Shown here one piece after another: positions 1 through 26,603 of a DNA stretch of 26,831 nucleotides. Position numbers and translations under genes: made by a program. Position 1 is the stretch's first letter. Every line of letters begins with the position of its first letter. The DNA is taken from the sequence record DRR723986_6241. One strand, written 5' to 3'. The notes beneath the pieces are model-generated. The model was not told where the DNA came from. It did no database searches and was given only the letters and a program-made list of their open reading frames with translations.

Positions 1-1061
1 TCGAAGATCCGTCCAAGCGCATGGGTTCTGCAGGAAAGCGCAGCCGGATATGTCGGCTTCAGCAGCGAACCTTCGGGTATCTCCACTTCGACAAGATCGT
101 AAAAGCCGTCATTGAAGAGAATCTGCGGGTCGAACACCATGATCATGTAGATGCCGAAGAACATGCGAAACATGTTTTCATTGAGATAGAAATTGATCGA
201 ATAGTCCGACTGCGGATCTGTTCCGGCAAAGTCGAGATACACTTTCTCGCCTTCGCGATGCATCGTGCACTTGATCTTGAATGGCCCGTTGCCGTTGCCG
301 TCATCGCAGATGTAATCCTCAAAGCTGACAGGCTCTTCGCCGATACTATCCATGATCAGCTTGCGCATCGCCCGGCGATTGCGATCAAGCAGTTCATCCA
401 GCGCGGAGTTGAACACATCCACGCCAAAACGCTCGCAGATTTCAACGACGCGAAGTGATGCAACCCGGCAGGAAGCAACAATCGCGTGCAGGTCTGCCTT
501 GTACCATTCGGGCATTCGGCTCTGATGGGCCGCAATCTTCAGAATGTCCTCCTGGAACTCGCCCTTGCGGTAAAGTTTGACGGGCGGGACTCGCAACCCC
601 TCCTCAAAGATTGACCGCGCATTATTCGGCATCGAGCCAGGGACCTTGCCACCGATATCCGTCATGTGACCGAACATCGCCGACCATGCGATCAGCCGAC
701 CCTCGAAGAAGATCGGCATGATGATCAATTGGTCATTGTTGTGGCTGATCGCGCCCTCGCAGGAATAAGGGTCGTTGAGAAGGATGACATCGCCCTCCTC
801 TATCTTGCCTTCATAGCCCGCAAGGAAGCCGCCAAGGAAAGAGCCGAACTGACCGACGACCATCTTTCCATCGCGGTTGGCAATCATCGGGAAGGCGTCG
901 CCCTGTTCCCGAATGCCGGGCGAAAGCGCCGTCCTGAAAAGTGTCGCATCCATTTCCAGCCTGGCATTGCGAAGCGCATTCTCGATCAGATCGAGCGTGA
1001 TTGGATCGACAGAGACGGTCGGGATCGGGGCGGTATTCGTTTCAATGATTTCAGCAGCCAT
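1..1061 (-). CDS. hyuB: Hydantoinase B/5-oxoprolinase-family subunit (N-terminal part; runs off the left edge)
   Basis: Absent from the ORF track because it is truncated. My minus-strand translation from ATG 1061 gives MAAEIIETNTAPIPTVSVDPITLDLIENALRNARLEMDATLFRTALSPGIREQGDAFP...NDPYSCEGAISHNND...FGHMTDIGGKVPGS...EEGLRVPPVKLY. These are the Hydantoinase_B motifs (DPITL, SPxIRE, NDPY..H..D, H..DIGG..PGS, EG..PP.K). GAGGGA RBS lies just after the hyuA stop. Confidence 0.93.
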   Translation of the reverse strand, partial: MAAEIIETNTAPIPTVSVDPITLDLIENALRNARLEMDATLFRTALSPGIREQGDAFPMIANRDGKMVVGQFGSFLGGFLAGYEGKIEEGDVILLNDPYSCEGAISHNNDQLIIMPIFFEGRLIAWSAMFGHMTDIGGKVPGSMPNNARSIFEEGLRVPPVKLYRKGEFQEDILKIAAHQSRMPEWYKADLHAIVASCRVASLRVVEICERFGVDVFNSALDELLDRNRRAMRKLIMDSIGEEPVSFEDYICDDGNGNGPFKIKCTMHREGEKVYLDFAGTDPQSDYSINFYLNENMFRMFFGIYMIMVFDPQILFNDGFYDLVEVEIPEGSLLKPTYPAALSCRTHALGRIF

Positions 1062-1070
1062 GTTTCCCTC

Positions 1071-3125
1071 TCAAGCCTTAACTGGATTGATGATGATGTT
1101 TCCGTGTGGGTCGACCTCTGCGAGGCATCCCGGATGCACGAGTGCAGTAGAGTCCATTTCGATGATGATCGCTGGCCCCGGAATTCTGTCGCCGGCTTTT
1201 AGCTTGTCGCGATTGTAGATACCCGCCGGCTTCATGCCGCCATCGATATAGATCTCCGATTGCCGGATAAGGGCTGCGGCCGGATCGCCGTTTCCGGATT
1301 CGATTTCGATTGCAGGCAGCTCCAGAGTCTTGCCAAGCGCGATGGCTCGCAGATTCACCACCTCATGTTCTGCATCCATATTGAATGTGAACATGCGCTT
1401 GTGCTCGGCATCAAAGGCTTCGCAAAGCCTCTCAAGCCCCCCGTCCGCAAATGTATCGAGGTCAATATCCATCGGAATTTCAAAAGCTTGCCCGTGATAT
1501 CGCAGGTCTGACTGAAACGCGACGGTGATGTCAGCTTCATCGACGCCGTCGCGGCGCAGCTCCTTGCGCACTTGCTCGCCCATTTCCGAAAGCACATCTG
1601 CAATCTCTTTTGAGCTCGTATCCGAACGCTTCTTGGAATGGGACCGCGAAGCTTCGGCGCGGGCCTTGGTCGTCGCATCACCGACCGCACACAGAACGCC
1701 TGGCGATCGCGGCACGATAACCGGCCAGGAGCCCATAAGTTTTGCCACAGCATTTGAATGAAGCGATCCGGCACCGCCAAAGCCCATCAGCGCAAAATCG
1801 CGAGGGTCATAGCCCTGCTGCACTGAGATCATGCGAAGCGCGCCGAACATGTTTTCGTTGACGATATCGATGATACCTGCAGCAGCAGAATAGACATCCA
1901 GACCAAGCGCGTCAGCCACTTTCTGTACGGCCGTCTTGGCAGCTTCCCGGTCGAGGGCGAACGCCCCGCCGAGAAGCTCTTCCGGCAGATAGCCAAGGAC
2001 GACGTTTGCATCGGTTACTGTAGGCTCCTCGCCTCCCTTGGAGTAGCAGGCCGGGCCAGGCACGGCGCCGGCACTTTCCGGTCCGACGCGCAACGCTCCT
2101 GTCAGCTCAGGCACGTGCGCAATCGACCCGCCCCCTGCGCCAACCGTCTTAACATCGAGCGACGACGCCCTGACACTCAAATGGCCGACATCGGTGTTGC
2201 GGACCAGACGCGGCTGAAAATCCTCAATCAGCGCGACATCGGTCGATGTACCGCCGACATCGAGTGTCAGTATATTCTTGTATCCGGCGCCTCTCGCGAC
2301 CCAGAGCGCACCGGTGACGCCTCCCGCTGGACCGGACATCAGCAGATTGACTGGTGCAGACTGCGACTTCTCGGCGCTCATCAGCCCCCCGTCGGACCGA
2401 AGCAGGCTGAGCTGGCCTTTCATCCCCATATTTCTGAGTTCGCTTTCCAGATTGCGGACATATGAACCGACAACCGGCTGCACCGCCGAATTCGCCACTG
2501 TCGTCAGAGCCCGCTCATATTCGAACATTTCCGGCAGAATTTCGTGGCTCATGGAAATATTGAGGTCTGGGAAGACCTCCGCAGCGATACTGGCGACCTT
2601 TTTCTCATGGTCGCCATTCACATAGGAGTTCATCAGGCAAATCGTGATGGCCTGAACGTCCTGCTTGGCAAGGTCCTCCAGCGCCGCTTTGACCTGCGCT
2701 TCGTCAACAGGCCGGATTTCATTGCCGTAGGCATCCATCCGTCCGGACACTTCGACAGTATCCTCAAGCGCCGCCAGCGGCGTTGGCTTCGGCCAGACAA
2801 TCCATGCCGCCAGACCGCCGGGCACGTAGGACCTCGCGATTTGCATGATCTGCCGGTAGCCTTCTGTCACAATCAGGCCGACGCGCGCGCCCTTTCCTTC
2901 AAGAACCGCATTGGTCGCCACTGTCGTGCCATGCAGGAAATAGTCGATCTCTGACGGCTTCGCATTCGCGATCTCGCAAATATCCTTCGTGCCCATCACC
3001 ACGGCGCGGGACGGATCATCAGGGGTGGATGGCACCTTGGTCTTGAAGGAAGCGCCGGTCTGGTCATCGAACAACAAAAGGTCTGTAAACGTACCGCCTA
3101 CATCCACGCCTAGCCTGTAGCTCAT
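1071..3125 (-). CDS. hyuA: Hydantoinase A/5-oxoprolinase-family ATP-binding subunit
   Basis: 684 aa. Motifs GVDVGGTFTD, HGTTVATNA, SGPAGGV, DVGGTSTD, GAGGGSIA, GPESAGAVPGPACY, PTVTDAN and FGGAG. Lies directly upstream of the B subunit. Confidence 0.95.
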   Translation of the reverse strand: MSYRLGVDVGGTFTDLLLFDDQTGASFKTKVPSTPDDPSRAVVMGTKDICEIANAKPSEIDYFLHGTTVATNAVLEGKGARVGLIVTEGYRQIMQIARSYVPGGLAAWIVWPKPTPLAALEDTVEVSGRMDAYGNEIRPVDEAQVKAALEDLAKQDVQAITICLMNSYVNGDHEKKVASIAAEVFPDLNISMSHEILPEMFEYERALTTVANSAVQPVVGSYVRNLESELRNMGMKGQLSLLRSDGGLMSAEKSQSAPVNLLMSGPAGGVTGALWVARGAGYKNILTLDVGGTSTDVALIEDFQPRLVRNTDVGHLSVRASSLDVKTVGAGGGSIAHVPELTGALRVGPESAGAVPGPACYSKGGEEPTVTDANVVLGYLPEELLGGAFALDREAAKTAVQKVADALGLDVYSAAAGIIDIVNENMFGALRMISVQQGYDPRDFALMGFGGAGSLHSNAVAKLMGSWPVIVPRSPGVLCAVGDATTKARAEASRSHSKKRSDTSSKEIADVLSEMGEQVRKELRRDGVDEADITVAFQSDLRYHGQAFEIPMDIDLDTFADGGLERLCEAFDAEHKRMFTFNMDAEHEVVNLRAIALGKTLELPAIEIESGNGDPAAALIRQSEIYIDGGMKPAGIYNRDKLKAGDRIPGPAIIIEMDSTALVHPGCLAEVDPHGNIIINPVKA

Positions 3126-4069
3126 GTCATCTCCGCTTGGTAAGTTGTCTGTTTGGTCTGGGTCTTGGGATCAGGGAAACGTCCGGCGCGGCTGAGCATG
3201 CCTGGAAGCTGCCGGTCGAATTTCTCGGTCAGCCAGCCTGCAATATCGATCAAGGCGTCTTGGGATATGGCCTGGCACAGGCCGTGACGCTGCAGCATGT
3301 ATACAAGGTCTTCGCTTGGCACATTGCCTGTCGCCGCCGGTGCAAATGGACACCCGCCAATCCCGCCCACGCTTCCATCCAGTATCGACACGCCTGCCTT
3401 GAGCGCCGCATAGGCATTTGCCAGCCCGGTATTACGTGTGTTGTGAAAATGAGCCCGTAGCGGCATGTCCGGCAAGGCCTCGCGAAGCTCAGAAAACAGG
3501 GCTTCAACATGCCAGGGATCGCCGACACCGATCGTGTCGGCAATTGCGATTTCGCGCGGGCCTTCCTCTGCAAGTTCCTTAGCCATGTTGACGACACGCC
3601 GGATCGGAATCTCGCCCTCGAACGGACAGCCGAATGCGGCCGAAATCGTGACATTTGCACTGCGCCCATTGGCAAGTGCCCGCTTCAATATTGTCCGCGC
3701 CACCTGAACCGACCCCAGGTAGGATTGCCCCTGATTTTTCTGGGCAAACGTATCGCTGGTCAGGGCGACACATCCGATTTCATCAATCTTGGTACCGAGC
3801 GCACGCTCCAGGCCGCGTTCATTGAGCACGAGGCCGATATACGTCACGTCGTCATGCTCAGGCAGCGCGGCGATCACGGCTTCAGCGTCCGCCATTTGCG
3901 GCACGCGGCCCGGATGTACAAAACTTGCCACTTCGATCCGCTTGACCCCCGCAGAGGTGACAGAGCGAATGAGCTCCAGCTTTTCGGACGTGGAGAATAT
4001 TCGAGCTTCGTTTTGCAGCCCATCGCGCGCGCTCACGTCGAGAAGTTCGCAGTCGAGGGCTGCGCCCAT
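3122..4069 (-). CDS. Hydroxymethylglutaryl-CoA lyase family (DRE-TIM metallolyase)
   Basis: Motifs RDGLQNE, FGCPFEG, ADTIG, HFHNTRNTG and GGCPFAPAATGNV. Stop overlaps the hyuA start (ATGA). GGAG spacing favours ATG 4069 over ATG 4075. Confidence 0.92.
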   Translation of the reverse strand: MGAALDCELLDVSARDGLQNEARIFSTSEKLELIRSVTSAGVKRIEVASFVHPGRVPQMADAEAVIAALPEHDDVTYIGLVLNERGLERALGTKIDEIGCVALTSDTFAQKNQGQSYLGSVQVARTILKRALANGRSANVTISAAFGCPFEGEIPIRRVVNMAKELAEEGPREIAIADTIGVGDPWHVEALFSELREALPDMPLRAHFHNTRNTGLANAYAALKAGVSILDGSVGGIGGCPFAPAATGNVPSEDLVYMLQRHGLCQAISQDALIDIAGWLTEKFDRQLPGMLSRAGRFPDPKTQTKQTTYQAEMT

Positions 4070-4140
4070 GGCCATATCTCCATCACCGGTAGCCTTGATT
4101 ATGCAGATTAGTGGGGCGGCAGAGAGCGGAGTTGGCCATT

Positions 4141-4158
4141 TTATCCGCTGTGCGAGAA
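4141..4158 (-). promoter_or_regulatory. Putative operator TTCTCGC-ACA-GCGGATAA facing the lyase/hyuAB operon
   Basis: Read on the minus strand, it is identical to 4231-4248 at 15 of 18 positions (only the 3-nt spacer differs). It lies in a divergent intergenic region. Confidence 0.65.
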
Positions 4159-4230
4159 TATCGCTTCAAAGCGATCGGGCGATAACGCTGGCAGCGTCAT
4201 ACGAACCATATACCGGGGCGCGGTCCGGCC

Positions 4231-4255
4231 TTCTCGCTTGGCGGATAAATTGACG
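4231..4255 (+). promoter_or_regulatory. Putative operator TTCTCGC-TTG-GCGGATAA followed by a -35-like TTGACG
   Basis: Second copy of the motif, facing DUF1838 #1. TTGACG is at 4250-4255. Confidence 0.65.
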
Positions 4256-4350
4256 CAATTGTCTACCCTCAGGGCACGTCAACTCTACCAATCTATACTG
4301 GCGGTCGCCTTAAAAAGCGCGACGATGTGCAGGAAAAAGGAAAAACGGTC

Positions 4351-5313
4351 ATGAGCAAAATTTTCAATCGGCGCGATGCTTTGAAATTTGGCGGGGGTAT
4401 CGCCGCCGCAGGTGGCATTGCAGCTTGCACCAGCACGCAGGCAGCGATGGCCGAAACGCCGACGCAACCGCTCGAATTCGACAATCCGATCTGGAACCGC
4501 GACAAGTTCGCAAGGCTGCAAGGTAACGTCGACACCAATGAGCAGAAGTGGGGCTGGTATGGCGGCCGCGTCTTCGGGATTCGGCCCGATGAGAAAGACC
4601 GGCACATCTGCAACTTTGAGGGGTTTTCGGTGACGCGCCTCCTGCCGCTCGGAGATGGCAACTATCGCAAGGTGCTGCGCGAAGTCGGCTTCTACCTCGA
4701 CAAGGATACCGGTGAAATTCTGGAGACGTTCGTCAATCCTTATACCGGCGAAAAGGTGAATGTTGTCCCGATTGCCAACGACCCGTTCAACATCACGATC
4801 GAAGCTTATTACCCGGCTCCGCCAAGCTATGGCGGCCTGAACACCGAAGCCCCACCGCGTAGGCCGCTTCTGCTGAACTGGCGCGAATTCGGTGACCGGG
4901 TCTTCCTGCACACCGACATCAATCTCTACTATCCTTCATCACTCCAGCCCGACGAATGGCCGCGCGAGAGCCCCGGGCCGATGACGCAGGTTTCCGAATT
5001 CTTCAGCTACAATTTGTCGAAGGCCGACCTGATGAACCCGGAGCTCACGACAATTGAGCACTGGGGCGTCTGGAACCGGGCCACGCCTTGGTTCCCCTGG
5101 ATGCTCATGGACCAGGCTCCGGGTCATATGATGTATGTGTGCGACTTCTGCGGCCGCAAAACGCCTGAAGGAATTCCTCAGAAAATTCTCGATGCGGCGA
5201 AAGCAATCGATCCGAAATATCTTGAAGCGCCCACTGAAGACTACGGCCCCAGCCTTTCAAGCCTGGAAAATTACAAGCTGACGCAAACGCCTGCTCCGCC
5301 GCGCACCGAGTAA
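4351..5313 (+). CDS. DUF1838-family protein #1, predicted Tat-exported lipoprotein
   Basis: ATG 4351 follows an AGGA-rich RBS. N-terminus has a twin-arginine NRRDALK and a lipobox IAA-C. Family-like motifs G.VFG..P, FEGF, REVGFYLD..TGEIL..F.NPYTGE.V.V..IANDP and W.R..PW.PWM.M. Confidence 0.8.
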   Translation: MSKIFNRRDALKFGGGIAAAGGIAACTSTQAAMAETPTQPLEFDNPIWNRDKFARLQGNVDTNEQKWGWYGGRVFGIRPDEKDRHICNFEGFSVTRLLPLGDGNYRKVLREVGFYLDKDTGEILETFVNPYTGEKVNVVPIANDPFNITIEAYYPAPPSYGGLNTEAPPRRPLLLNWREFGDRVFLHTDINLYYPSSLQPDEWPRESPGPMTQVSEFFSYNLSKADLMNPELTTIEHWGVWNRATPWFPWMLMDQAPGHMMYVCDFCGRKTPEGIPQKILDAAKAIDPKYLEAPTEDYGPSLSSLENYKLTQTPAPPRTE

Positions 5314-5350
5314 ATTTTTGCAGATATGCCGGGACAGTTTCCCGAATTGA

Positions 5351-5380
5351 GAAAGGCGCCCATTCGGCGCCTTTTTTCTT
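5351..5380. terminator. Rho-independent terminator, probably bidirectional
   Basis: AAAGGCGCC-CATTC-GGCGCCTTT followed by a T run on + and preceded by an A run. It sits between convergent genes. Confidence 0.85.
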
Positions 5381-5386: not shown

Positions 5387-6025
5387 TTAAGACGTGCGGG
5401 CCGATTTGAGCTTGGCAAGATAGGCCAGCACATCCGCCTCGCTCACAACATCCGCATATTTCGCATTCATGTCGAAGAGATTGGCTTCATGAGGCGAGGC
5501 ATGCCGGTCTCCGCATGCTTCCTTCACAACGATCGGGATGAAACCGTGCGAGCAGGCATCAACGCATGTCGCGCGCACGCAGCCTGACGTCGTCAGCCCC
5601 GTCAGAATGACTGAATCAATACCGCTCGCCGTCAGCGTTGACGCAAGCGAAGTGCCGAAGAACGCGCTCGGATACTGTTTCCTGATGACAAGCTCATTGC
5701 TATCGGGAGCCAATCCTTCCGGCCAGTTACCCATCGGGCTGCCGTCATAGAAGTGTCTAAGCGGCGCCGCCTTTTGATAGAACCTTCCGCCGTCGATGAA
5801 TGAAGGATGATACACCACGCTGGTCAGCACAACTGGGACAGAAGCCTCCCTAGCCGCTTGACGGACGCGAAGCGCGGCGTCGAGCGCAGGCTGCGGCGAG
5901 GCAAACAGATCGCATTCGGGATCAAAATAGGCTTGCACAAAGTCTATCAGGATCAATGCCGGCTTTTCGCCGAACCCGATCTTGTTGTCGTACACCCCGC
6001 TATAGGAGTCAGTCTGAGACACCAT
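5387..6025 (-). CDS. Isochorismatase-family cysteine amidohydrolase (maleamate amidohydrolase NicF / N-carbamoylsarcosine amidase-like)
   Basis: 212 aa. Motifs GFGEKPALILID, KQYPSAFFGT and GLTTSGCVRATCVDA give an intact Asp-Lys-Cys triad. C-terminal HEANLFDMNAKYADV is typical of the NicF/CSHase subgroup. Confidence 0.9.
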   Translation of the reverse strand: MVSQTDSYSGVYDNKIGFGEKPALILIDFVQAYFDPECDLFASPQPALDAALRVRQAAREASVPVVLTSVVYHPSFIDGGRFYQKAAPLRHFYDGSPMGNWPEGLAPDSNELVIRKQYPSAFFGTSLASTLTASGIDSVILTGLTTSGCVRATCVDACSHGFIPIVVKEACGDRHASPHEANLFDMNAKYADVVSEADVLAYLAKLKSARTS

Positions 6026-6238
6026 CCACTTTCACCTTCTCGTTCCATATACCGGCAGCACGGTCAGCTCCTACACCCGACTTCACTCCTTTATTAGGGC
6101 GAGACCGGCCGCGTTTCACGCCCTTATCGCCCAGATCGGTCGACTAGCGGATAGACTGACCAGAAGCTGCGACATGCTCCAGGACCGTCAGTATCCAAGC
6201 GTACCCTTGTGATGCCCGGAATGTCAGGAGAACCGTGG

Positions 6239-7438
6239 ATGAAAAAAGACGCACAAGTCATCATCGCAGGCGCCGGCCCCGTCGGTACATTCGCTGCTTA
6301 CTTTCTCGCCGAAGCCGGCATTGATGTCATCGTGCTGGAAAGCACTCCGTCCTGCATGGAAGACATGCGCGCGTCTACCTTCCATCCGCCAACACTGGAA
6401 ATGATGGATGAAATCGGCATCGCCCAGGACTTGATTGAGAAGGGCCTCAAGGCTCCTGTCTATCAGTATCGTGACCGCCAGTCGGGTGAGCGATACGAGT
6501 TCAATTTCGCAGAACTCTCCGACGATACGGCATTCCCGTTCCGGCTGCAGTGCGAGCAATACAAGATGGCGGGCTTGCTGAGCTCGAAGCTCGATGCTCA
6601 TCCGAGAGCCAACATGCTGTTTCAGCACCGCATGAACAGCTTCTCACAGGATGATGATGGCGTGACGGCATTTGTCGAGACGCCCTATGAGATCACGTCT
6701 TTCCGCGCCGATTACCTGATCGCTGCCGACGGGGCCAACAGCGTCATCCGCAAGTGGCTGGGGGTGCAGTTTGACGGCTTCACCTATCCTGAGAAATTTT
6801 TGACCCTCAGCACCATCACGCCGCTCGAAGACTATTTCGAAGGCTTGTCTCTGGTGAACTATATTGCCGATCCTGAGGAGTGGGTGGTCCTGCTGCGCGT
6901 GCCGAGTGTCTGGCGGGTTCTTGTTCCTGCGACCGGCATAGAGGACGAAGAGCTTCTCTCGGACGAAAACAAGACGAAAGTCTTCGACCGGCTGATCGGG
7001 ATTGGCGAAGAGGTAAAAACCGAGCACCGAACGATCTACAATGTCCATCAGCGGGTTGCCGAGAAATTCAATCACGGGCGGGTCATGCTGGTCGGCGATG
7101 CGGCGCACCTGAACAATCCGCTCGGCGGGTTTGGGATGAATAGCGGTATACACGATGCGGAGTATCTCGGCCGCGCGCTCATCCAAATCCTGCAAAACGG
7201 CGCGGACCCCGCCCCTCTCCTCTCAGCTTTTGATGCCGAACGCAGGGCCATCACACATGAGTTCATCCAGCGCCAGACCATTCGCAACAAGAAGATGATG
7301 GAAGCCAATACGGCCGAGGCACAGAAAGCCTATGCGGCGGAATTGAAGGCGATCCACTCCAGCGATGAGCGCCGACGGGAGTTCCTCCTCAACCAGTCAA
7401 TGTTGAACAAGGTGAGACGACGAGAAAGGGTGGCTTGA
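6239..7438 (+). CDS. FAD-dependent monooxygenase (group A, MhpA/PheA-like)
   Basis: AGGAG at 6226-6230 precedes ATG 6239. Motifs GAGPVG, ADGANS.IR and GDAAHLNNPLGGFGMNSGIHDA. Confidence 0.9.
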   Translation: MKKDAQVIIAGAGPVGTFAAYFLAEAGIDVIVLESTPSCMEDMRASTFHPPTLEMMDEIGIAQDLIEKGLKAPVYQYRDRQSGERYEFNFAELSDDTAFPFRLQCEQYKMAGLLSSKLDAHPRANMLFQHRMNSFSQDDDGVTAFVETPYEITSFRADYLIAADGANSVIRKWLGVQFDGFTYPEKFLTLSTITPLEDYFEGLSLVNYIADPEEWVVLLRVPSVWRVLVPATGIEDEELLSDENKTKVFDRLIGIGEEVKTEHRTIYNVHQRVAEKFNHGRVMLVGDAAHLNNPLGGFGMNSGIHDAEYLGRALIQILQNGADPAPLLSAFDAERRAITHEFIQRQTIRNKKMMEANTAEAQKAYAAELKAIHSSDERRREFLLNQSMLNKVRRRERVA

Positions 7439-7440
7439 TC

Positions 7441-9485: not shown

Positions 9486-9726
9486 CCCAGCGCTCCCGCT
9501 TCCGATTTGCATTCTGCCGCAGTCGTCCCTGCAGAGGAGACATGGCTTTCAAGCATCTTGGATGCCCCCCGCAGTCCCTATCAGCAATGGATCGCCCCCC
9601 GTCTGATCAATAGGCGAGAATCTCTCAGGATGTCGCCAAAGCTGTATCGCGCCCGCGATAATTTCTCACTTATCGGGAAACAGCTTGCCCCAACCCGGGA
9701 TGCCCCACGCCAGCAAGGACTTCACC

Positions 9727-18227: not shown

Positions 18228-18650
18228 ATGCCTCTCACCAAAGCCCAGCTCGAACATCTCGCGGTCGACCGGTACTTTCGCGGGTTCAACCGGCACGACG
18301 AAGCTTCGGTCATGGGCACCTTTGCCGAAGACTGCATCATGACGTTCAGCGCAGCCGATCGCGAGTTCGAAGGACTGGAGTCTCTTCTCGAGCATACTCG
18401 GGAATTCATCGAGACCTTCCCGACCATCAACTTCCACAAGTTCCAGAGCGTCATCGACGCCCGCGCGCAGGAGATTGCCGTCCGGTTCATCGTTCAGCTG
18501 ATTGATGCAAAGGGAGACGAAGTCGTCATGAACAATTGCAACTTCTTCCGCGTCAATCGGGCCGGGCTGTTTTCCGAAGTGGCCATCTTCAATTCGGGCA
18601 AGCTCGACAAAGGCTTCAGGGCCGGCAACACGACCGACGCGACCTGGTAA
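18228..18650 (+). CDS. NTF2/SnoaL-like protein
   Basis: GGAG RBS. 140 aa with YFRGFNRHD....GTFAEDC, then a beta-rich C-terminal half (NCNFFRV...G). Confidence 0.8.
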   Translation: MPLTKAQLEHLAVDRYFRGFNRHDEASVMGTFAEDCIMTFSAADREFEGLESLLEHTREFIETFPTINFHKFQSVIDARAQEIAVRFIVQLIDAKGDEVVMNNCNFFRVNRAGLFSEVAIFNSGKLDKGFRAGNTTDATW

Positions 18651-20208: not shown

Positions 20209-20815
20209 ATTCTCGACCCTGAAGAGCATCGCGGCACCAATCCTGGAAAGCGACATCGATACAGACATCATCTTCCCGGCGCGCTTCCTGCTTTTGCTGA
20301 GCCGCGACGGCATCGGCCAGTATGCGTTTCACGGCTGGCGGAATGATCCGAGACGCGACAGCACATTTGTTCTCGATCAGCCGCGATACGCCGGTGCGGA
20401 GATCATCGTCGCCGGCGAACGATTTGGTGTCGGCTCCTCGCGGGAGCATGCCGTCTGGGCGCTTTTAGACTTTGGAATAAAGTGCATCATCGCGCCGAGC
20501 TTCGGCGACATTTTTTGCGCCAATTGCCTGAAGAATGGCGTACTGCCCATCAGACTTGAAGAGGCGGGCTATGAGCAGGTCAAACAGGCCGCGCTGGCGG
20601 CAGACCCGATTGAAGTCGATCTGCCAGATCAAAATATCCGGATCGCAGACTCACCTCCGCTCGAGTTTGATATCGCCGCCGCAGGCAAAACGGCGCTGCT
20701 GAGAGGGCTGGACGAAATCGACATGATCCTTGCCGAAGATGCAGAGGCGATAGGCCAATTCGAACAAGGGCAGAAAGAAAAGGCACCCTGGCTCTGGCTG
20801 GACGGTGGGATCTGA
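20201..20815 (+). CDS. leuD: LeuD-type small subunit
   Basis: GGAGG RBS precedes ATG 20201, which overlaps the leuC end. Motifs [39 protein letters not shown] and GLDEI. Confidence 0.93.
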
Positions 20816-20819
20816 CACA

Positions 20820-21698
20820 ATGACGAAACCAGACCTGAAAGCGGCGCTCATGAGCGGAAAATTTGTCGCCGCGCCCGGCATCTACGACATGATTGCCGCA
20901 GTTGTGGCAAACAAAGTCGGTTTCGATTTCGTCTACGCATCAGGCTACTGGTCAGTTGCCTCAGCCTATGGCCTGCCTGATGCCGGCATCGCGACTTATA
21001 CCCAGATGGTTGATCGGGTCGCCACACTGTGCCGGACGTCTAATCCAGGCGTGATTGCAGATGCCGATACCGGCTATGGCGGTCTGCTAAACGTCCATCA
21101 CACGGTGCGAGGCTACGAAACCGCAGGCGTTGTTGCGATCCAGATTGAGGACCAGGAGTTCCCAAAGAAATGCGGCCACACCCCTTTCAAGAGAGTGATC
21201 CCGGTCGAAGACATGGTCGACAAGATCAAGGTCGCGACTGATGCAAGGCGCAATGAAGCAACACTCATCATTGCGAGAACCGACGCGAAACAGCCTGAAG
21301 GCTTTGATAGCGCTCTGGAGAGAGCAGCCGCATATGGCGAGGCGGGCGCCGACATCATCTTCGTAGAAGCGCTGGAATCCTGCGAGGAGATGCAACGCGC
21401 CTGTTCGATGATCGACAAGCCGATGGTCGCCAATATGGCGAATGGAGGCAGCACACCGATCCTCACAGTGGATGAGCTCAAGGCCCTCGGGTATCAGATG
21501 GCGATCTTTCCGGCGATGACCGCTCTGAGCGCTGCTGCGGCCGTCGAAAAATCGCTACAAGCCCTGAAGACAATCGGCACATCTCTTCCATCCAACGTGC
21601 CCCAGTTCAGCTTTTCAGAGTTCAATGAACTCATCGGATTTCCGGAGGTGTGGGACTTTGAGCGCAAATGGGCCAAGACGCCAGAAAGTGAAAGTTGA
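20820..21698 (+). CDS. Isocitrate lyase/PEP mutase family lyase (2,3-dimethylmalate/methylisocitrate lyase-like)
   Basis: Motifs APGIYD, GLPDAG, ADADTGYG, IQIEDQEFPKKCGH (catalytic Cys loop), IIARTDA and AGADIIFVEA. Starts 4 nt after leuD. Confidence 0.92.
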   Translation: MTKPDLKAALMSGKFVAAPGIYDMIAAVVANKVGFDFVYASGYWSVASAYGLPDAGIATYTQMVDRVATLCRTSNPGVIADADTGYGGLLNVHHTVRGYETAGVVAIQIEDQEFPKKCGHTPFKRVIPVEDMVDKIKVATDARRNEATLIIARTDAKQPEGFDSALERAAAYGEAGADIIFVEALESCEEMQRACSMIDKPMVANMANGGSTPILTVDELKALGYQMAIFPAMTALSAAAAVEKSLQALKTIGTSLPSNVPQFSFSEFNELIGFPEVWDFERKWAKTPESES

Positions 21699-21813
21699 CC
21701 ATTAGTCAGATAGTCAGAAGAAAGTCCGACAGGGTTGGCCTGCTCCTTCTAAGCTTGGCACAAGTTCATCTCTATTCTTACTGAGTGTGGGTGACGAGTC
21801 TGGAGGATCTATC

Positions 21814-22686
21814 ATGCTTTCACGTAGAAGTTTCGTAACCGGGTCAGCCGCCGGCGCTCTGACAGCTGGCCTTTCCGGTGCAAGCGCTCAGGAACTGAAA
21901 TCACTGGCTCCGCCCGTCTCGCAAGTGCAATCGGACTTTCTGTATTTTGACGATCCGGTAGAAGAGTTCCGCGCCCATCTCAGAATGGAGCGTGACCTGG
22001 TCGAGGATGAAGGATCGACGATCACCTGGTATCACTGGATGGTCTTCATGATTCCGGGTGACAGGCGGCCGGAGCCGCTGATGCGCTATGAGGGCATCGA
22101 ATACAGCTACTTTCGTCACCTCGGAAACAACAACTACCGCATCCACGCACACAACATTTCGTTTCCGCGAGACCTCAAGACAAACCAGTTTACCGATCAG
22201 GTCCTCAATCCGATCACGGGCGAAACCGTCCATGCGCCGGTCTCGAAAATCCTGAATGATCCTGGCACGATCGGAAGCCCGATCGGTTTCCGCAATATCA
22301 GCGGCGACGGCTCCGTCCAGGATGTCTACCGGCAGTTCCGGCGAGAAGACAATCTGATCAAGCTCGACAGTATCCGCAGTGCTCCGCCCGATTGGCCAGC
22401 GACGCATATTGAGAATTCATGCCAGTGGGTGGATCTCGACCTGTTCGCCAATCAGACGATCACCTCCCTGCCTGTCCATTTCTGTGGCCACTATGCCTTT
22501 GAATATTATTCGTGGCTCAACATGCCGAAAGGCAAAGGCCATCTCTCTGGCTTCTGGGATGGCAAGAAACTCAACTCGCCGAGTGAAATTCCGCGTGAAA
22601 TGCTGGACCGCATGGAGCGCGAATATCCTGAACTGCTCCAGCCAAGATGGGAAGACTTTGACAAACCGGTACCATTCGAAATCTAA
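21814..22686 (+). CDS. DUF1838-family protein #3, predicted Tat-exported
   Basis: GGAGG RBS precedes ATG 21814. SRRSFV twin-arginine signal with an ASA cleavage site. Motifs P.PLMRYEG, NPITGETV...NDP and WLNM. Confidence 0.78.
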   Translation: MLSRRSFVTGSAAGALTAGLSGASAQELKSLAPPVSQVQSDFLYFDDPVEEFRAHLRMERDLVEDEGSTITWYHWMVFMIPGDRRPEPLMRYEGIEYSYFRHLGNNNYRIHAHNISFPRDLKTNQFTDQVLNPITGETVHAPVSKILNDPGTIGSPIGFRNISGDGSVQDVYRQFRREDNLIKLDSIRSAPPDWPATHIENSCQWVDLDLFANQTITSLPVHFCGHYAFEYYSWLNMPKGKGHLSGFWDGKKLNSPSEIPREMLDRMEREYPELLQPRWEDFDKPVPFEI

Positions 22687-23935
22687 CCGTTGGCGCAAGT
22701 CGCTTCTCCAAACCGCTGCTGCGTTTTGCTTCATTGCCCTTCCCGGCTGCCAGAGCGCTGCTCAGGAAGCATTTCCACCGGGCGTTACTGATCCCTATGA
22801 GGCGATTGAAGACCCGGTCTACAGCGACCCGATCTTCTGGTGGCGCATGACGTCGAGGCCGGAAAACATCTTTGAACCGGACCCTTACTTCTATTGGCCA
22901 AGCGCACATATTGAAGGCGCGCCTGGCCCTCTGGCAAAGCCCGCGTCAGCCGCTCACATCGAGCATCATACAAATGCGCTCGAGGACATGTCATCGTGGG
23001 CAGAAGCACACGAGACCTACGCCCTGATTGTAGTCCACAAGGGTGAGTTGCTGCTGGAGCGCTATTGGGATGAGACCGATCCGGAAGCGCTGACGAATGG
23101 CCGCGCTCTCACCCGAAGTGTGACGCCCATAATTCTCGGGTTTGCGGTGTCTGAGGGTGCCGTTCAACTCGACGATCCGATCGGAAAGTATATCGAAGAA
23201 TGGGCAGACGACCCGCGGGGCCAGGTTACAGTTCACCAACTCGCGCAGAATGCATCCGGCCTCGAAGTTGCCGAGCAAATGGGTCTCGAACAGATCAAGG
23301 GCAACAAGGATCTATGTCTTGTCTATTGCGGCGATGTCGTACGGGCGGCTCTTGCCTATGAGCAGGCCGCCGATCCTGGCTCGCGCTTTGATGTGGCGCA
23401 GGAAAACATGCAGCTGCTGGCGCTCGTTATTGAGCGGGCTATGGGCAAGCCTATCCAGGACATCCTGTCGGACCGCATATGGAAACACATCGGCGCTTCC
23501 GACGCGACCTTCCAGCTCGACCGGCCGGACGGCGTTGCGCGCGTCATGTGCTGCATGCGCGCCTTGCCACGTGATTGGGCGCGGCTCGGACTTTTGCTGC
23601 TAAATGACGGAAAGTGGAACGGCAAACAGGTTTTGCCGGAGGGTTGGGCGCACACAATGTCGACGCCGTCACCCGCCAATCCGAACTTCGGAACGGGTCT
23701 CTGGATCGGTTCACCCTACACGCCGATGCGGACCTATTTCGAAGGTCAGCCGGGTGTTGTGCCACAGTCGGAGCCGTTTCTCGCAGATGACGTAATCTTC
23801 CTGGAAGGCGGCGGGTTCCGCACCGTGTTCATTGTCCCGTCAGAGGATCTGGTCATCATGCGCCTCGGGCGCTTCGACGAGGCCTGGGATCACGCCTATC
23901 TGGTCAACACTTTCCTGCGGGCAGCTAACCCATAA
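22658..23935 (+). CDS. Beta-lactamase-fold lipoprotein, paralogue of 11232-12491, with degenerate catalytic motifs
   Basis: The probable start is TTG 22658 (uncertain), giving a signal peptide with lipobox LPG-C. Motifs ALIVVHKG, LAQNASGL, PGSRF, LPEGW and PSEDLVIMRLG. SxxK reads ALTR and YxN reads VAQ. Confidence 0.85.
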   Translation: MTNRYHSKSNRWRKSLLQTAAAFCFIALPGCQSAAQEAFPPGVTDPYEAIEDPVYSDPIFWWRMTSRPENIFEPDPYFYWPSAHIEGAPGPLAKPASAAHIEHHTNALEDMSSWAEAHETYALIVVHKGELLLERYWDETDPEALTNGRALTRSVTPIILGFAVSEGAVQLDDPIGKYIEEWADDPRGQVTVHQLAQNASGLEVAEQMGLEQIKGNKDLCLVYCGDVVRAALAYEQAADPGSRFDVAQENMQLLALVIERAMGKPIQDILSDRIWKHIGASDATFQLDRPDGVARVMCCMRALPRDWARLGLLLLNDGKWNGKQVLPEGWAHTMSTPSPANPNFGTGLWIGSPYTPMRTYFEGQPGVVPQSEPFLADDVIFLEGGGFRTVFIVPSEDLVIMRLGRFDEAWDHAYLVNTFLRAANP

Positions 23936-24037: not shown

Positions 24038-24069
24038 AAAAAAACTCCGGGCCAACGAGTGGCCCGGAG
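24038..24069 (-). terminator. Rho-independent terminator of the TonB-dependent receptor gene
   Basis: 10-bp stem CTCCGGGCCA-ACGAG-TGGCCCGGAG preceded by A7 on +, i.e. a U7 tail on -. It lies about 30 nt downstream of the receptor stop. Confidence 0.9.
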
Positions 24070-24101
24070 GTATGGAGGAAACTTCGAACTGGATTCGAAA
24101 T

Positions 24102-26603
24102 CTAGAAGTTTGCCGTCAGGCGAACGCCCCATTCTGCACCGCGGACCGGCGTACCGAAGTAGCTCCGGCTGAAGAAGCCAGTTGTACCGCCCGACGTTGA
24201 AGCGCTGAGGTCGTCCGTCACGTTTGTTCCGTAGATTTCAGCCATGATCCCTTCACTGAGAGCAATGCCAGCTCGAACATTGATCTTGGTCGCGGCGTCG
24301 ACCTTGTTGAACTCCAGATTGTCTATGTAAAAGTCACCGGCATAAAGAGCATCAATCCGAACAAAGGACGACCGACCCAGGAAATCCGTCAGATCAAAGT
24401 CTGCCGAGAAGGATCCTGAGTGTTCCTGAATGTAACGCGGCACGTTGCCTGCGGCGCTTACAGCGTTCTGGCTGTCAACGACGCCGGCCCCCAGCAGACG
24501 GAAGGCTAGCGTGCCCCCCTCGGCATAGCGCGTCAGTTCAGCATCAACCCAGTTGTAATTGGCCGTCAGCGTCAGCCAGTCGGTGGGGCTCAATGTGCCT
24601 TCCAGTTCGAGACCGAGATACTCGGAATCACCATCCTGATAATAGGGAACGAAAGCCGGGTTCAGAACGAACTGAACCTGATTTTCCCAATCCATCTGAT
24701 AGAGAGCGACCGAATACTGGAACATGGAGTTCAGATCATGCTTGAAGCCGATTTCGTAGGCTTCAAGCTTTTGGACAGGCGTGAAATAGCCAACCGTATC
24801 AGAGCTGATCCCGGACGTTGGTTCAGCAGCCGCAAACCCATCAGCGTTCGACTGAGTACCCTGCAGATAGCTCTGTGAGAAGCTGCCATACAGGTTCATG
24901 TTTCTGCCTTCTGGCTGATAGCTCAGAATGATGCGAGGCATGAACTTGCTGTAGGATTGGCTCTTGTTCTCCACACGGTTCGCGGTTGCACCGGCAGCAG
25001 CGTCGGACAGAGGGATCGTCTGTTCGTCGTCCTGATAGCGGCCTTCCACCGACAGCGTCACTTCTTGCGTGATATCATAATCAATGGAGCCAAAGATGCC
25101 GAGCACCTCACTTTCGGTCGAGGTGAAGAACGGGCAAGCCGAAGTTAAGCAGTCGTAATTGCCATTACGAATTTCAACCAGCGTTGAATCGAGATTGTAA
25201 TAGCTCGCCCCGATCATATAGCGGAACCGGTTCTCCGACGGCGACGTCAAACGGACTTCGAAGGACGAATCCTTAATTTCCTGAGCGAAGCCGGTATAGG
25301 TGATAGCAGCGTCACCGCTTGCACCATATGTGCTGTCGAAAATGGCAAAGTTTTCATACTGACCAAACGACCCGAACGCGTCTGCCGTTAAACCATTATC
25401 GAATTCGGTTTCGAATGAAACATGGTGGCGGAACGTCTCATAAGTGTTGCCGAGACCATCCGGCGCACTGACGAAACCGTCGCCAAATTGCGGTGGAGTG
25501 GTTGCAACCCCTTGAAACTGGTTGCCGAAAATACCCGTGAACGCATTCGTGGTGCCGTTCCTCGGATCTGACGGCGGAAGAGGATCGCCCGAAAGCGGCG
25601 TCCGAAGCGTATCTTCGTCAAAATCCGGGATGTTTCCGCAGAAGTTTGAAGAAGCGGTCGAAAGATCGGTCTCGAAGCTTGCACCGGGTGCACCAGTGAC
25701 GACATTCACCAGCTTGCCTTGGTAAACCAGGTTACAGGTGCCCGTCGGATTATTGGATGCAACCCCGCCATAGGCAGACGTATCCTCTGCATCGACGTAG
25801 AAGCCCGAATATTTGATCAGGGATTTGTCGCCGATATCAAAGTGGAGCGACCCAATAATGCCCAGGGTTTCTTCTTCGCCGAGCGGGGTACCATCGAGAT
25901 ACTCCCAATAGGCGCCCTTCTTCTCCTGCGATATGGCGATCCGGCCGCGAAGGCGGTCGGTTATGGGACCACTGGCAACGCCCAGAAGATTGTATCCGGT
26001 ATTGTCATCGGCCGGCCCGGTCGTTGCGCTGATGCCAGCGCTCACACGTCCCTCAAAGGACTCGGTTGGTTCAGCTGGAATATAATTGACTGCGCCGGAA
26101 AATGTGTTGCGCCCAAAGAAGGCCGCTTGTGGTCCCTTGATGACTTCGACCTGTCCAAGATCGACAAGCGGCAAAAGGCCCACACCACCAGAAAGATACG
26201 CACCATCCCAGAAGAATGCCCCGGACCGCGAAGCTGCGGTATTCACTTGTGCCCCGACACCGCGGAAGCGGAACTGCGGGTTGGCGCGGCCGGCAAAACC
26301 ACCGGCGCCATTGTTCTCGAAGTCGAAGCCCGGAACAAAGGCGGCGAGATCCGCATTGCTCAAAATACCGCGGTCGTCGAGATTGTCCTGGGAAAATGCT
26401 GTAACCGAAATTGGAACCTCAAGCGGGGTTTCATCCCGCTTACGCGCCGTGACGTACACGACGTCTTGACGCGAATCCGCTTCATCTGTTTCCGCGGGTG
26501 TCTCAGCCTCTTCCTGAGCCATTACTTGTGCTGGCATCGCCAGCGCAGCCGTCAGCGCAAATGCGCTGACATAGCCAAGTTTCGAAGATCTCCTCATTGC
26601 CAC
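24102..26603 (-). CDS. TonB-dependent outer-membrane receptor
   Basis: AAGGAGG RBS (26610-26616) precedes GTG 26603 (alternative ATG 26597). Signal peptide ends VMA-Q. TonB-box-like DVVYVTARKR, plug motif VEVIKGPQAAFFGRNTFSGAVNY and C-terminal GVRLTANF. Confidence 0.95.
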   Translation of the reverse strand: MAMRRSSKLGYVSAFALTAALAMPAQVMAQEEAETPAETDEADSRQDVVYVTARKRDETPLEVPISVTAFSQDNLDDRGILSNADLAAFVPGFDFENNGAGGFAGRANPQFRFRGVGAQVNTAASRSGAFFWDGAYLSGGVGLLPLVDLGQVEVIKGPQAAFFGRNTFSGAVNYIPAEPTESFEGRVSAGISATTGPADDNTGYNLLGVASGPITDRLRGRIAISQEKKGAYWEYLDGTPLGEEETLGIIGSLHFDIGDKSLIKYSGFYVDAEDTSAYGGVASNNPTGTCNLVYQGKLVNVVTGAPGASFETDLSTASSNFCGNIPDFDEDTLRTPLSGDPLPPSDPRNGTTNAFTGIFGNQFQGVATTPPQFGDGFVSAPDGLGNTYETFRHHVSFETEFDNGLTADAFGSFGQYENFAIFDSTYGASGDAAITYTGFAQEIKDSSFEVRLTSPSENRFRYMIGASYYNLDSTLVEIRNGNYDCLTSACPFFTSTESEVLGIFGSIDYDITQEVTLSVEGRYQDDEQTIPLSDAAAGATANRVENKSQSYSKFMPRIILSYQPEGRNMNLYGSFSQSYLQGTQSNADGFAAAEPTSGISSDTVGYFTPVQKLEAYEIGFKHDLNSMFQYSVALYQMDWENQVQFVLNPAFVPYYQDGDSEYLGLELEGTLSPTDWLTLTANYNWVDAELTRYAEGGTLAFRLLGAGVVDSQNAVSAAGNVPRYIQEHSGSFSADFDLTDFLGRSSFVRIDALYAGDFYIDNLEFNKVDAATKINVRAGIALSEGIMAEIYGTNVTDDLSASTSGGTTGFFSRSYFGTPVRGAEWGVRLTANF

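Follow-up and report, generated by a model that had tools for sequence, protein, structure and literature searches.

The maleamate lower pathway comprises NicC, NicX, NicD, NicF and NicE in Pseudomonas putida and HspB, Hpo, Nfo, Ami and Iso in strain S16. The nicotinate fermentation of Eubacterium barkeri employs a dimethylmaleate hydratase (DmdAB) and a 2,3-dimethylmalate lyase, and the methylcitrate cycle employs PrpD, an aconitase and PrpB. The cyclic-imide pathway of Blastobacter sp. A17p-4 reportedly consists of an imidase, a half-amidase and a maleate hydratase. The locus compared with them here is a stretch of 26,831 nucleotides (nt) from sequence record DRR723986_6241, called the window, which means the whole stretch that was analysed. 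It encodes a putative ATP-dependent ring-opening enzyme (HyuAB), a cysteine amidase, an aconitase-family hydratase (LeuCD), a C-C lyase and three exported proteins of the DUF1838 family. Gene families were called with Pfam and NCBIfam scans plus a listing of open reading frames (ORFs).

The window holds a catabolic gene island that is real, conserved and so far undescribed. With moderate confidence, it is read as one modular island of a marine Hyphomonadaceae-like alphaproteobacterium that would convert a nitrogen ring compound of the lactam, imide or hydantoin type to a substituted maleamate or maleate. The lower pathway can reasonably be inferred from the gene families: the ring amide would be opened and deamidated, the maleate hydrated by LeuCD and a C-C bond cleaved. 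This order, proposed earlier in a first-pass annotation of the sequence and ending there in an isocitrate lyase (ICL)-family cleavage, fits both the gene linkage and the characterised relatives of five families. These are the NicF/N-carbamoylsarcosine-type amidase, LeuCD, the PrpD/cis-aconitate decarboxylase family, the lyase with a KKCGH loop and the 3-hydroxy-3-methylglutaryl-CoA (HMG-CoA)/citramalyl-CoA lyase family. Characterised members of these enzyme families act on maleate, aconitate, alkyl-malate type acids or half-amides. The core of maleamate, maleate, hydration and cleavage is accepted because this family chemistry and the gene linkage both point to it.

Conservation was assessed through DUF1838a, the highest-scoring of the three DUF1838 proteins, which has 1234 relatives at E ≤ 0.001 among 3053 candidates (closest at 91% identity). 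A scan of one genome per species yielded 572 DUF1838a-encoding stretches, and the best 80 of these 572 loci were analysed. The 80 loci come from Hyphomonadaceae-type, sphingomonad and Azospirillaceae Alphaproteobacteria and from Halieaceae-type Gammaproteobacteria, and several are short contigs. A window family was counted as present when tblastn gave at least 30% identity over at least half of the query within 10 kb. By this measure, at least three other window families are present in 54 of the 80 loci and none in 15.

The window genes are not side by side by chance. Two related genomes, G005 (contig C10, 79-117 kb) and G006 (contig C1, 56-98 kb), each have counterparts of 20 of the 23 window genes clustered in about 40 kb, in a rearranged order. 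The genes for an HMG-CoA-lyase-like protein (HMGL), HyuA and HyuB are contiguous in all five Hyphomonad-type genomes, each of which has a HyuA orthologue (67-81% identity). Where both partners are present in a locus, amidase and LeuD are adjacent in 5/5, LeuD and the lyase in 4/5, a 124-amino-acid (aa) helical protein (ORF124) and the PrpD-family protein in 4/5, and the PrpD-family and SnoaL-like proteins in 5/5. A lack of co-conservation had been named in advance as an outcome that would refute the proposed pathway; because the island recurs in G005, G006 and the Hyphomonad-type genomes, this refutation is avoided and the gene set is co-conserved as a unit. The conserved thing is a modular island, not a fixed operon.

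The features of the window are as follows.

3-1061, minus strand: HyuB (hydantoinase B/oxoprolinase), N-terminal 353 aa, cut by the left window edge (PF02538, E 7e-93).
1071-3125, minus strand: HyuA, alpha subunit of an ATP-dependent hydantoinase/lactamase (PF05378, PF01968, PF19278).
3122-4075, minus strand: HMGL, HMG-CoA-lyase-like (DRE-TIM) lyase (PF00682, E 1e-46; PRK05692, 293.3 bits against a cut-off of 246).
4076-4326, no strand: divergent promoter region that has three 10-11-mers in common with 6026-6208.
4351-5313, plus strand: DUF1838a, Tat-type (twin-arginine translocation) lipoprotein and beta-barrel; the ORF is 4327-5313 and the start is M9 (PF08894, E 1e-44, 153.1 bits).
5387-6025, minus strand: isochorismatase-type cysteine amidase of the NicF/N-carbamoylsarcosine amidase type (PF00857, E 7e-34).
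6026-6208, no strand: divergent promoter region between amidase and monooxygenase, with motifs in common with 4076-4326.
6209-7438, plus strand: class A flavin adenine dinucleotide (FAD) monooxygenase, PnpA/HspB type (PF01494).
7435-8190, plus strand: protein of the arylmalonate decarboxylase (AMDase)/maleate-isomerase fold, without catalytic cysteines (PF17645, E 5e-19).
8187-9512, minus strand: major facilitator superfamily (MFS) transporter, oxalate/formate-lactate (monocarboxylate) type (PF07690; SfMCT model 130 bits, under the cut-off of 320).
9685-11235, plus strand: NAD(P) aldehyde dehydrogenase, ALDH (PF00171, E 3e-173).
11220-12491, plus strand: Blac1, lipoprotein of the class C beta-lactamase/penicillin-binding-protein fold with intact motifs (PF00144).
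12561-13721, minus strand: DUF1838b, Sec lipoprotein; this ORF is overcalled and the true gene is about 12561-13517 (PF08894, E 3e-14, 53.6 bits).
13609-14538, minus strand: LysR-type regulator, divergent from the long operon (PF00126, PF03466).
14623-15168, plus strand: ORF of a cytoplasmic DUF3598_N-type barrel, start 14674, first of a ten-gene operon (PF12204, 29.2 bits against 22).
15229-16440, plus strand: class I S-adenosylmethionine (SAM) methyltransferase with a helical N-terminal domain (Methyltransf_25, E 2e-20).
16437-16811, plus strand: ORF124, helical protein of 124 aa with no Pfam or NCBIfam match.
16818-18215, plus strand: MmgE/PrpD-family protein (PF03972, PF19305).
18228-18650, plus strand: SnoaL/NTF2-like protein (PF12680, E 1.5e-11).
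18793-20208, plus strand: LeuC paralogue, aconitase-family hydratase (leuC model, 712.6 bits against 560.25).
20174-20815, plus strand: LeuD paralogue, aconitase-family hydratase (leuD model, 172.1 bits against 116.25).
20805-21698, plus strand: C-C lyase of the ICL/phosphoenolpyruvate (PEP)-mutase family with a KKCGH loop (PF13714).
21787-22686, plus strand: ORF of DUF1838c, Tat-exported, start 21814 (PF08894, 28.8 bits; TIGR01409).
22379-23935, plus strand: overcalled ORF of Blac2, beta-lactamase fold with catalytic motifs lost, probable TTG start at 22658 (PF00144, E 5e-23).
24102-26663, minus strand: ORF of a TonB-dependent receptor, probable start M23 giving 24102-26597, convergent with Blac2 (Plug domain, E 3e-13).

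All 15 gene families of the first-pass annotation are found in Pfam and NCBIfam at the places it gave. Its list left out five genes that lie in the same operons, namely those for the LysR regulator, the methyltransferase, ORF124, the MmgE/PrpD-family protein and the SnoaL-like protein. The G+C content is even along the window (0.535-0.622).

Gene spacing suggests how these genes are grouped. The minus-strand unit HMGL-HyuA-HyuB, in which HMGL is the first gene and overlaps hyuA by 4 nt, appears to run off the left edge. A ten-gene run of about 9.3 kb would comprise DUF3598, methyltransferase, ORF124, PrpD, SnoaL, LeuC, LeuD, lyase, DUF1838c and Blac2. The other putative units are DUF1838a alone, the amidase alone, monooxygenase with isomerase-fold gene, MFS, ALDH with Blac1, LysR and DUF1838b, and the TonB-dependent receptor, which is convergent with the ten-gene run. 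From the same spacing, ALDH and Blac1 (overlap of 16 nt) are read as co-transcribed and LeuCD as translationally coupled to the lyase. Exported and cytoplasmic proteins are thus encoded in the same operons, since the units ALDH-Blac1 and lyase-DUF1838c-Blac2 are joined by overlaps or short gaps.

The window families accompany DUF1838a at different frequencies. Among the 80 loci, the methyltransferase is present in 41, ORF124 in 32, MFS in 29, DUF3598 in 19, HyuB in 18, ALDH in 17, HyuA in 16, LeuC in 15, the monooxygenase in 14, the amidase in 13, the isomerase-fold protein in 11, the lyase in 8 and PrpD in 6. Genes for ring opening and hydration also occur together. For example, HyuA, HyuB, LeuC, LeuD and an alpha/beta hydrolase form one run in Parahaliea maris (L021/L086), and the Halieaceae loci L012-L014 have the same order, with the HyuB slot called as a shadow ORF. 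CoA-transferase, LeuC, LeuD and HMGL are consecutive in L095; in L084, LeuC, HMGL and CoA-transferase stand in a row and LeuD has no separate ORF call. Recurrent neighbour families include VAO-type and amine-oxidase flavoenzymes with cytochrome c, esterases, luciferase-type monooxygenases, a VOC dioxygenase, polysaccharide-deacetylase-fold hydrolases and creatinase-type M24 enzymes. Together, these neighbours may be read as a general toolkit for nitrogen ring compounds.

The N, central and C domains of HyuA and the HyuB subunit are all recognised (PF05378, PF01968, PF19278 and PF02538). Among solved structures, HyuA scores highest against N-methylhydantoinase (7hk5, 464 bits), then against caprolactamase (6yra, 420 bits), and lower against acetophenone and acetone carboxylases (302 and 246 bits). 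The hydrolases outscore the carboxylases, and a ketone carboxylase was therefore judged the less likely assignment. Neither caprolactamase equivalog cut-off is reached (CapA 552 bits against 1000; CapB 174 against 1000, the gene being cut by the window edge). HMGL lies above the cut-off of the HMG-CoA-lyase subfamily model. A family III CoA-transferase gene directly follows HyuB in both relatives viewed (L101, 3605-4807; L102, 6598-7800). No CoA-transferase gene is present in the window, which ends within hyuB; because the window stops there and the relatives carry the gene at that place, it very probably lies just beyond the left window edge.

In L102, from an Algimonas-type metagenome-assembled genome (MAG), the surroundings of the HMGL-HyuAB-CoA-transferase operon include an RHS-repeat fragment (4554-5315) at a distance of a few kb and, farther off, MlaA and MMPL genes. 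These are probably unrelated neighbours.

The amidase is most closely related, among solved structures, to N-carbamoylsarcosine amidohydrolase (26st, 153.8 bits), followed by NicF (3ot4/3uao, 126.9 bits) and Ami (4l07, 123 bits). Aligned with 3ot4, 4l07 and 26st, it shares the columns of the catalytic Asp (in LILIDF), Lys (in VIRKQY) and Cys (in TTSGCVRAT). The earlier description as NicF-like is accurate for the fold and the Asp-Lys-Cys triad, but N-carbamoylsarcosine amidase is the nearer solved relative. The monooxygenase is nearest to PnpA (6ain, 199 bits) and HspB (7da9, 145 bits).

The isomerase-fold protein has the fold of the Asp/Glu-racemase superfamily (43.7 bits to 4fq5). Maleate isomerase uses two catalytic cysteines, one in each pseudo-symmetric half, and AMDase uses Cys188. 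At the positions of AMDase G74 and C188, the window protein has G/M and G (GMSAVTF and VGTNL), and no Cys is conserved at either catalytic site among eight aligned members. The NCBIfam arylmalonate decarboxylase equivalog scores 72 bits against a cut-off of 225, with Gly in the Cys188 column. The maleate-isomerase fold predicted earlier is thus present (PF17645), but both catalytic cysteines are gone, and because it has no cysteine at either site the protein is not a thiol isomerase or decarboxylase. The gene adjoins a PnpA/HspB-type monooxygenase gene in six of the seven loci with both. The cysteine-less subfamily, which includes the window protein (7435-8190) and members in L001, L010, L020, L022, L030, L053 and L077, has conserved GMSA(V/E)TF and Q-x-GTNL blocks.

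LeuC-like proteins are numerous in the island genomes. Each of five genomes has two to four full-length matches (42-62% identity), and their surroundings differ: hydrolase-LeuC-LeuD-amidase, LeuC-lyase-IclR-amidase with an isomerase-fold gene, or CoA-transferase-LeuC-LeuD-HMGL. In a quick maximum-likelihood tree of 27 LeuC sequences, the window LeuC joins copies linked to amidase or lyase genes (SH-aLRT, an approximate likelihood-ratio branch support, 89; long window branch). The tree is suggestive only, because a copy classed as having no context proved to lie near a DUF1838 gene. Ordinary leucine-biosynthesis genes were considered and judged less likely, given the coupling to the lyase and the LeuC tree.

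The catalytic loop of the lyase reads PKKCGH. The motif K(K/R)CGH is the catalytic loop of PrpB and of the ICL/PEP-mutase lyases. The top solved relatives are a Bacillus enzyme annotated as carboxyphosphonoenolpyruvate (CPEP) mutase (4iqd, 196 bits) and petal death protein (1zlp, 182 bits), followed by methylisocitrate lyases (about 156-182 bits; PrpB 1mum, 156) and 2,3-dimethylmalate lyase (3fa3, 157 bits). The lyase falls under both PrpB equivalog cut-offs (TIGR02317, 260 bits against 354.4; NF008455, 212.8 against 353). The PrpD-family protein has both MmgE/PrpD domains and matches no NCBIfam model, a PrpD model included. With E ≤ 1e-5 as the limit, the solved structures related to it are those of cis-aconitate decarboxylases (about 69 bits) and of IDS epimerase (41 bits).

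The three DUF1838 genes lie above the Pfam cut-off (153.1, 53.6 and 28.8 bits against 25), and each product carries an export signal. Counted from M9, DUF1838a has an RR motif and the lipobox IAAC. DUF1838b, from M69, has a Sec lipoprotein signal (MLKRHSF...LSAC), and DUF1838c has a Tat signal (TIGR01409, 20.7 bits against 16.7). DUF1838 is absent from 14 control genomes and present in two to eight copies in five island genomes. In Parahaliea maris (G002, contig C19, 161-224 kb), all eight DUF1838 matches lie within about 63 kb, and HyuAB-LeuCD is there too.

The AlphaFold model of DUF1838a is a barrel of about ten strands (pLDDT 80, pTM 0.76; both model-confidence scores). Searching the DUF1838 profile against PDB sequences gives a best E of 0.19, and Foldseek with the DUF1838a model gives template-modelling (TM) scores of only 0.2-0.3. 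An exhaustive structure alignment ranks BFA1 (Z 8.6), the bilin lyase CpeS (8.0), Rv2717c (7.5), a DUF3598 protein (7.2) and nitrobindin (7.0); by the aligner's own guidance, models that have no true match commonly reach Z 7-8. Nitrobindin-type matches span Z 6.7-7.5, and outer-membrane barrels score equally. By inference, DUF1838 is a periplasmic ligand-handling barrel.

Two beta-lactamase-fold lipoproteins had been predicted, and both folds are found, but one of the two proteins is catalytically dead. Blac1 has the lipobox LTSAC and the motifs S144-L-A-K and Y239-S-N; S-x-x-K and Y-x-N are kept in 13 other aligned rows, not all of which are distinct loci. Blac2, from the TTG at 22658, has a basic and hydrophobic leader ending in LPGC, and both of its motifs are lost (A-L-T-R for S-x-x-K, V-A-Q for Y-x-N). 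Its closest copies, in the Halieaceae loci L013 and L017, have A-M-T-R for S-x-x-K and F-T-N for Y-x-N. Blac2-like neighbours in L001, L010, L074, L075 and L101 keep both motifs. To judge from these residues, Blac2 probably binds its ligand without hydrolysing it. The earlier idea that the substrate is fragmented in the periplasm has as its basis one intact and one dead serine hydrolase. The TonB-dependent receptor is under every NCBIfam cut-off (siderophore, 76.5 bits against 223.5; haem, 40.1 against 316.85).

The favoured reading, one modular island for a nitrogen ring compound, can be set out as eight steps. The TonB-dependent receptor would import the compound or a conjugate of it (step 1), and in the periplasm it would be bound or trimmed by the exported DUF1838 barrels and by Blac1, the serine hydrolase with intact motifs (step 2). 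The monocarboxylate-type MFS transporter would bring the product into the cell (step 3), where ALDH and the PnpA/HspB-type flavin monooxygenase would oxidise it (step 4). HyuAB would then open the ring amide at the expense of ATP (step 5), and the cysteine amidase would free the nitrogen and leave a cis-butenedioate derivative (step 6). This acid would be hydrated or isomerised by the LeuCD paralogue with the PrpD-family enzyme (step 7). In the last step, either the KKCGH lyase would yield pyruvate and an acid, or CoA transfer followed by the HMG-CoA/citramalyl-CoA-type lyase would yield acetyl-CoA and a 2-oxo acid (step 8). Four further members of the island have no assigned place among these eight steps: the methyltransferase, ORF124, the SnoaL-like protein and the isomerase-fold protein without cysteines.

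Several observations weigh against this reading. The isomerase-fold protein is cysteine-less and Blac2 is dead, which leaves two proposed steps without a competent enzyme. The HMGL route needs a CoA-transferase, and none is within the window. Among solved structures, HyuA and the amidase come closest to two enzymes that act one after the other in the creatinine pathway, which fits a ureide better than an imide. Support for the LeuC clade is weak (SH-aLRT 89, long branch), and the LeuC copy without apparent context has a DUF1838 gene about 0.9 kb away. The linkage counts are conditional on DUF1838a, because the 80 loci were picked for it. The genes are rearranged from genome to genome, some modules stand by themselves (for example, the methyltransferase pair and DUF1838a without HyuAB), and 15 of the 80 loci have no other window family. 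Because of the shuffled order and the lone modules, the island may serve more than one substrate.

The last point leads to the alternative that survives best, which is that of a mosaic island. Here, separately evolved small modules would handle several related but distinct substrates, and there would be no single linear pathway. The modules would be HMGL-HyuAB-CoA-transferase; monooxygenase, isomerase-fold gene and amidase; LeuCD-lyase; DUF3598-methyltransferase-helical protein-PrpD-SnoaL; and receptor-DUF1838-hydrolase. Order and orientation are shuffled among the window, G005 and G006, and modules stand alone in many of the 80 loci. The two to four LeuC-like paralogues of each genome each lie amid a different mix of the same families, and the shared promoter words connect just two intergenic regions. 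Against a mosaic, 20 of the 23 genes lie within about 40 kb in two other genomes, and operons of the window combine genes for exported and for cytoplasmic proteins. The modules are also bound to one chemistry by the cross-links amidase-LeuD, HyuAB-LeuCD and CoA-transferase-LeuCD-HMGL. The mosaic remains a tentative explanation, with perhaps one chance in a few.

The promoter words themselves are local. CCATATACCGG is exact at 4206 and 6045, within the intergenic regions 4076-4326 and 6026-6208. A GGGCGATAA-type word occurs in both of these divergent regions and at a third site at 15176, and a AGCGGATAAA-type word is restricted to the two regions. With up to two mismatches, the 10-mer core CATATACCGG shows no enrichment (20 matches in the window, 12.4 expected; 20 reached in 3 of 100 shuffles), and its exact form is found in just 1 of the 80 related loci. 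A shared promoter motif, as reported earlier, therefore exists, but it is confined to two intergenic regions. The words may mark co-regulation of the left-hand operons; they are not a cluster-wide signal.

A substituted pyridine or pyridone is an unlikely substrate. In this alternative, a nicotinate- or nicotine-like maleamate pathway would act on an alkyl- or carboxyalkyl-substituted ring, and the maleate would undergo hydration and cleavage in place of isomerisation to fumarate. The monooxygenase comes closest to PnpA and HspB; the amidase reaches 127 bits against NicF and 123 against Ami. A sphingomonad amidase-LeuCD operon lies beside a second flavin monooxygenase, a VOC-type (extradiol-like) dioxygenase and polysaccharide-deacetylase-fold and alpha/beta hydrolases, a set that parallels NicC/X/D/F. 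However, Pfam finds no ring-cleavage dioxygenase and no NicD-type deformylase in the window, which has HyuAB instead, and its NicE-like protein is without both cysteines.

A hydantoin or creatinine-type ureide is rather improbable. Modelled on the conversion of N-methylhydantoin through N-carbamoylsarcosine to sarcosine, this route would have HyuAB open an N- or 5-substituted hydantoin and the isochorismatase-type enzyme decarbamoylate the resulting N-carbamoyl acid. The best solved relatives of the two enzymes, N-methylhydantoinase (464 bits) and N-carbamoylsarcosine amidohydrolase (154 bits), agree with it. A creatinase-type M24 gene is next to the HMGL-HyuAB-CoA-transferase operon in G006, and a gene of the M24 cluster is beside HMGL in G005. 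The racemase-superfamily fold of the isomerase-fold protein presumably recalls hydantoin racemases. However, Pfam detects neither a creatinine deaminase nor a sarcosine oxidase or dehydrogenase among the window genes, and the HMGL and CoA-transferase partners would be unexplained. The amidase is operonic with LeuCD in 5/5 loci with both, which suits an unsaturated or hydroxy di-acid as its product and does not suit an amino acid.

The substrate proposed in the first-pass annotation is the least probable of those considered. It held that bilins, chlorophyll catabolites or monopyrrolic products such as hematinic acid and methyl-ethyl-maleimide pass through dialkylmaleamates to pyruvate and an acid. 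The enzyme set is chemically coherent with such a route: there is an enzyme to open the imide or lactam, an amidase for the half-amide, a hydratase of the LeuCD type, a lyase of the dialkylmalate type (182 bits to petal death protein, 157 to 2,3-dimethylmalate lyase) and a monocarboxylate MFS transporter. Hematinic acid, once opened and deamidated, would be a methyl-homoaconitate-type acid and a natural substrate for a PrpD/LeuCD/PrpB-like trio. Maleimides and hematinic acid are reported as degradation products of chlorophyll and haem (PMC7318184). The weak structural neighbours of the DUF1838a barrel include CpeS (Z 8.0), nitrobindins (6.7-7.5) and a DUF3598 protein (7.2), and record titles place many host genomes in algal, cyanobacterial or plant settings.

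None of the remaining evidence is specific for tetrapyrroles. A Pfam scan for bilin-type families covered the 25 window ORFs and 27 plus 51 neighbour representatives (78 clusters); 40 of 58 further neighbour clusters (57 in two loci, one in a single locus) lay outside the scan. No haem oxygenase, bilin reductase, bilin lyase, red chlorophyll catabolite (RCC) reductase or pheophorbide a oxygenase (PaO) is among the 25 ORFs and 78 representatives, so the suggested co-occurrence with bilin lyase, RCC reductase or haem oxygenase is not seen among the scanned proteins. A canonical haem oxygenase (PF01126) is present in one of the five island genomes, on another contig, and MAGs may be incomplete. 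The receptor, at 40.1 bits, is far from the haem-receptor cut-off of 316.85, and there is no cobalamin riboswitch. The fold matches of DUF1838a, at Z 7-8 and with Foldseek TM scores of 0.2-0.3, do not rise above what unmatched models usually give. The link to tetrapyrroles has no direct support.

It is very doubtful that the island represents the first gene set with which bacteria mineralise monopyrrolic decay products of chlorophyll, haem and phycobilins. The products concerned would be hematinic acid, methyl-ethyl-maleimide, methyl-vinyl-maleimide and related pyrrolinones. In this improbable scheme, DUF1838 and DUF3598 would serve as periplasmic and cytoplasmic carriers and HyuAB as an ATP-dependent maleimide or pyrrolinone hydrolase. 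The PrpD-family protein, LeuCD and the KKCGH lyase, as a trio like that of the methylcitrate cycle, would split methyl-homoaconitate-type acids to pyruvate and glutarate or butyrate.

The methyltransferase and ORF124 form a conserved pair. They are adjacent in all 35 loci with both, and DUF1838a is no more than 1.5 kb away from the methyltransferase in 32 of 41. Its AlphaFold2 model has a pLDDT of 79, and an HCMPG block is invariant in an 11-sequence alignment. Foldseek and the ESM Atlas return generic class I small-molecule methyltransferases only. ORF124 has a conserved GKRP block. In 26 of the 80 loci, the pair has beside it an exported protein that is absent from the window, about 306 aa long and marked by the nucleophile elbow GHS(F/Y)GA. 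Examples are L044 5034-5954 and a cluster-5 ORF in L001 between the Blac and Amd genes; the protein has no Pfam match at E ≤ 1e-5.

Other non-coding signals in the window are few. An inverted repeat, ATAACC-ATC-GGTTAT, lies in 14539-14622 between LysR and the long operon. G+C-rich hairpins with A and T runs occur between convergent genes at about 5350-5380 (DUF1838a/amidase) and about 24045-24085 (Blac2/receptor), and these look like bidirectional terminators. Scans of the window for sigma-70 promoters and terminators are at or under shuffle expectation. An Rfam scan gives nothing at gathering score, with no cobalamin or other riboswitch; one small-RNA match was rejected (25 bits against a threshold of 70).

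The view that no characterised pathway has this gene set agrees with the literature outside subscription journals and supplements, in which no paper on the gene set or pathway was found. There, DUF1838 appears only as table entries in two Streptomyces gene-cluster papers, the accessions PF08894 and IPR014990 return nothing, and DUF3598 appears only in plant and coral lists. The island joins DUF1838, the methyltransferase-helical protein pair, the cysteine-less isomerase-fold protein and the dead beta-lactamase-fold protein to enzymes of guessable chemistry. It recurs in marine and soil Alpha- and Gammaproteobacteria, and this offers a practical entry point. Cultured carriers include Novosphingobium barchaimii LL02, Parahaliea maris HSLHS9, Niveispirillum irakense DSM 11586 and Sphingomonas pokkalii L3B27. 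Once found, the inducing compound would place DUF1838 and its companion families in a setting from which functions could be assigned. It would also reveal what seems to be an undescribed route from a nitrogen ring compound to pyruvate and acetyl-CoA without a ring-cleaving dioxygenase. If the substrate were tetrapyrrole debris, a gap in the carbon and nitrogen cycle would be filled; at present this is a chemically tidy guess.

Compared with the known systems, the window resembles the nicotinate/nicotine maleamate pathway in its PnpA/HspB-type monooxygenase, its Asp-Lys-Cys amidase and its maleate-isomerase-fold protein. It differs in having HyuAB, in the lack of a NicX-type dioxygenase, a NicD deformylase and catalytic cysteines in the isomerase-fold protein, and in the fate of the di-acid, which appears to be hydrated by LeuCD and then cleaved, whereas in the maleamate pathway it is isomerised to fumarate. 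As in the creatinine/N-methylhydantoin pathway, HyuA (7hk5, 464 bits) and the amidase (26st, 154 bits) are nearest to the enzymes of that route. Unlike that pathway, the window encodes neither a creatinine deaminase nor an enzyme that oxidises sarcosine; in other genomes the amidase shares an operon with LeuCD, and HyuAB is operonic with an HMG-CoA-lyase-type enzyme and a CoA-transferase. The LeuCD-type hydratase coupled to a KKCGH lyase, with a PrpD-family gene in the same operon, is like the DmdAB-lyase and methylcitrate steps. In contrast to those systems, the host is a marine alphaproteobacterium, the lyase is under the PrpB cut-off, the PrpD-family protein is nearest to cis-aconitate decarboxylases and the upstream steps differ. 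The cyclic-imide pathway of Blastobacter sp. A17p-4, likened here by description and not by sequence comparison, has the same course from cyclic imide through half-amide and (substituted) maleate to hydration, whereas ring opening in the window would use the ATP-dependent HyuAB.

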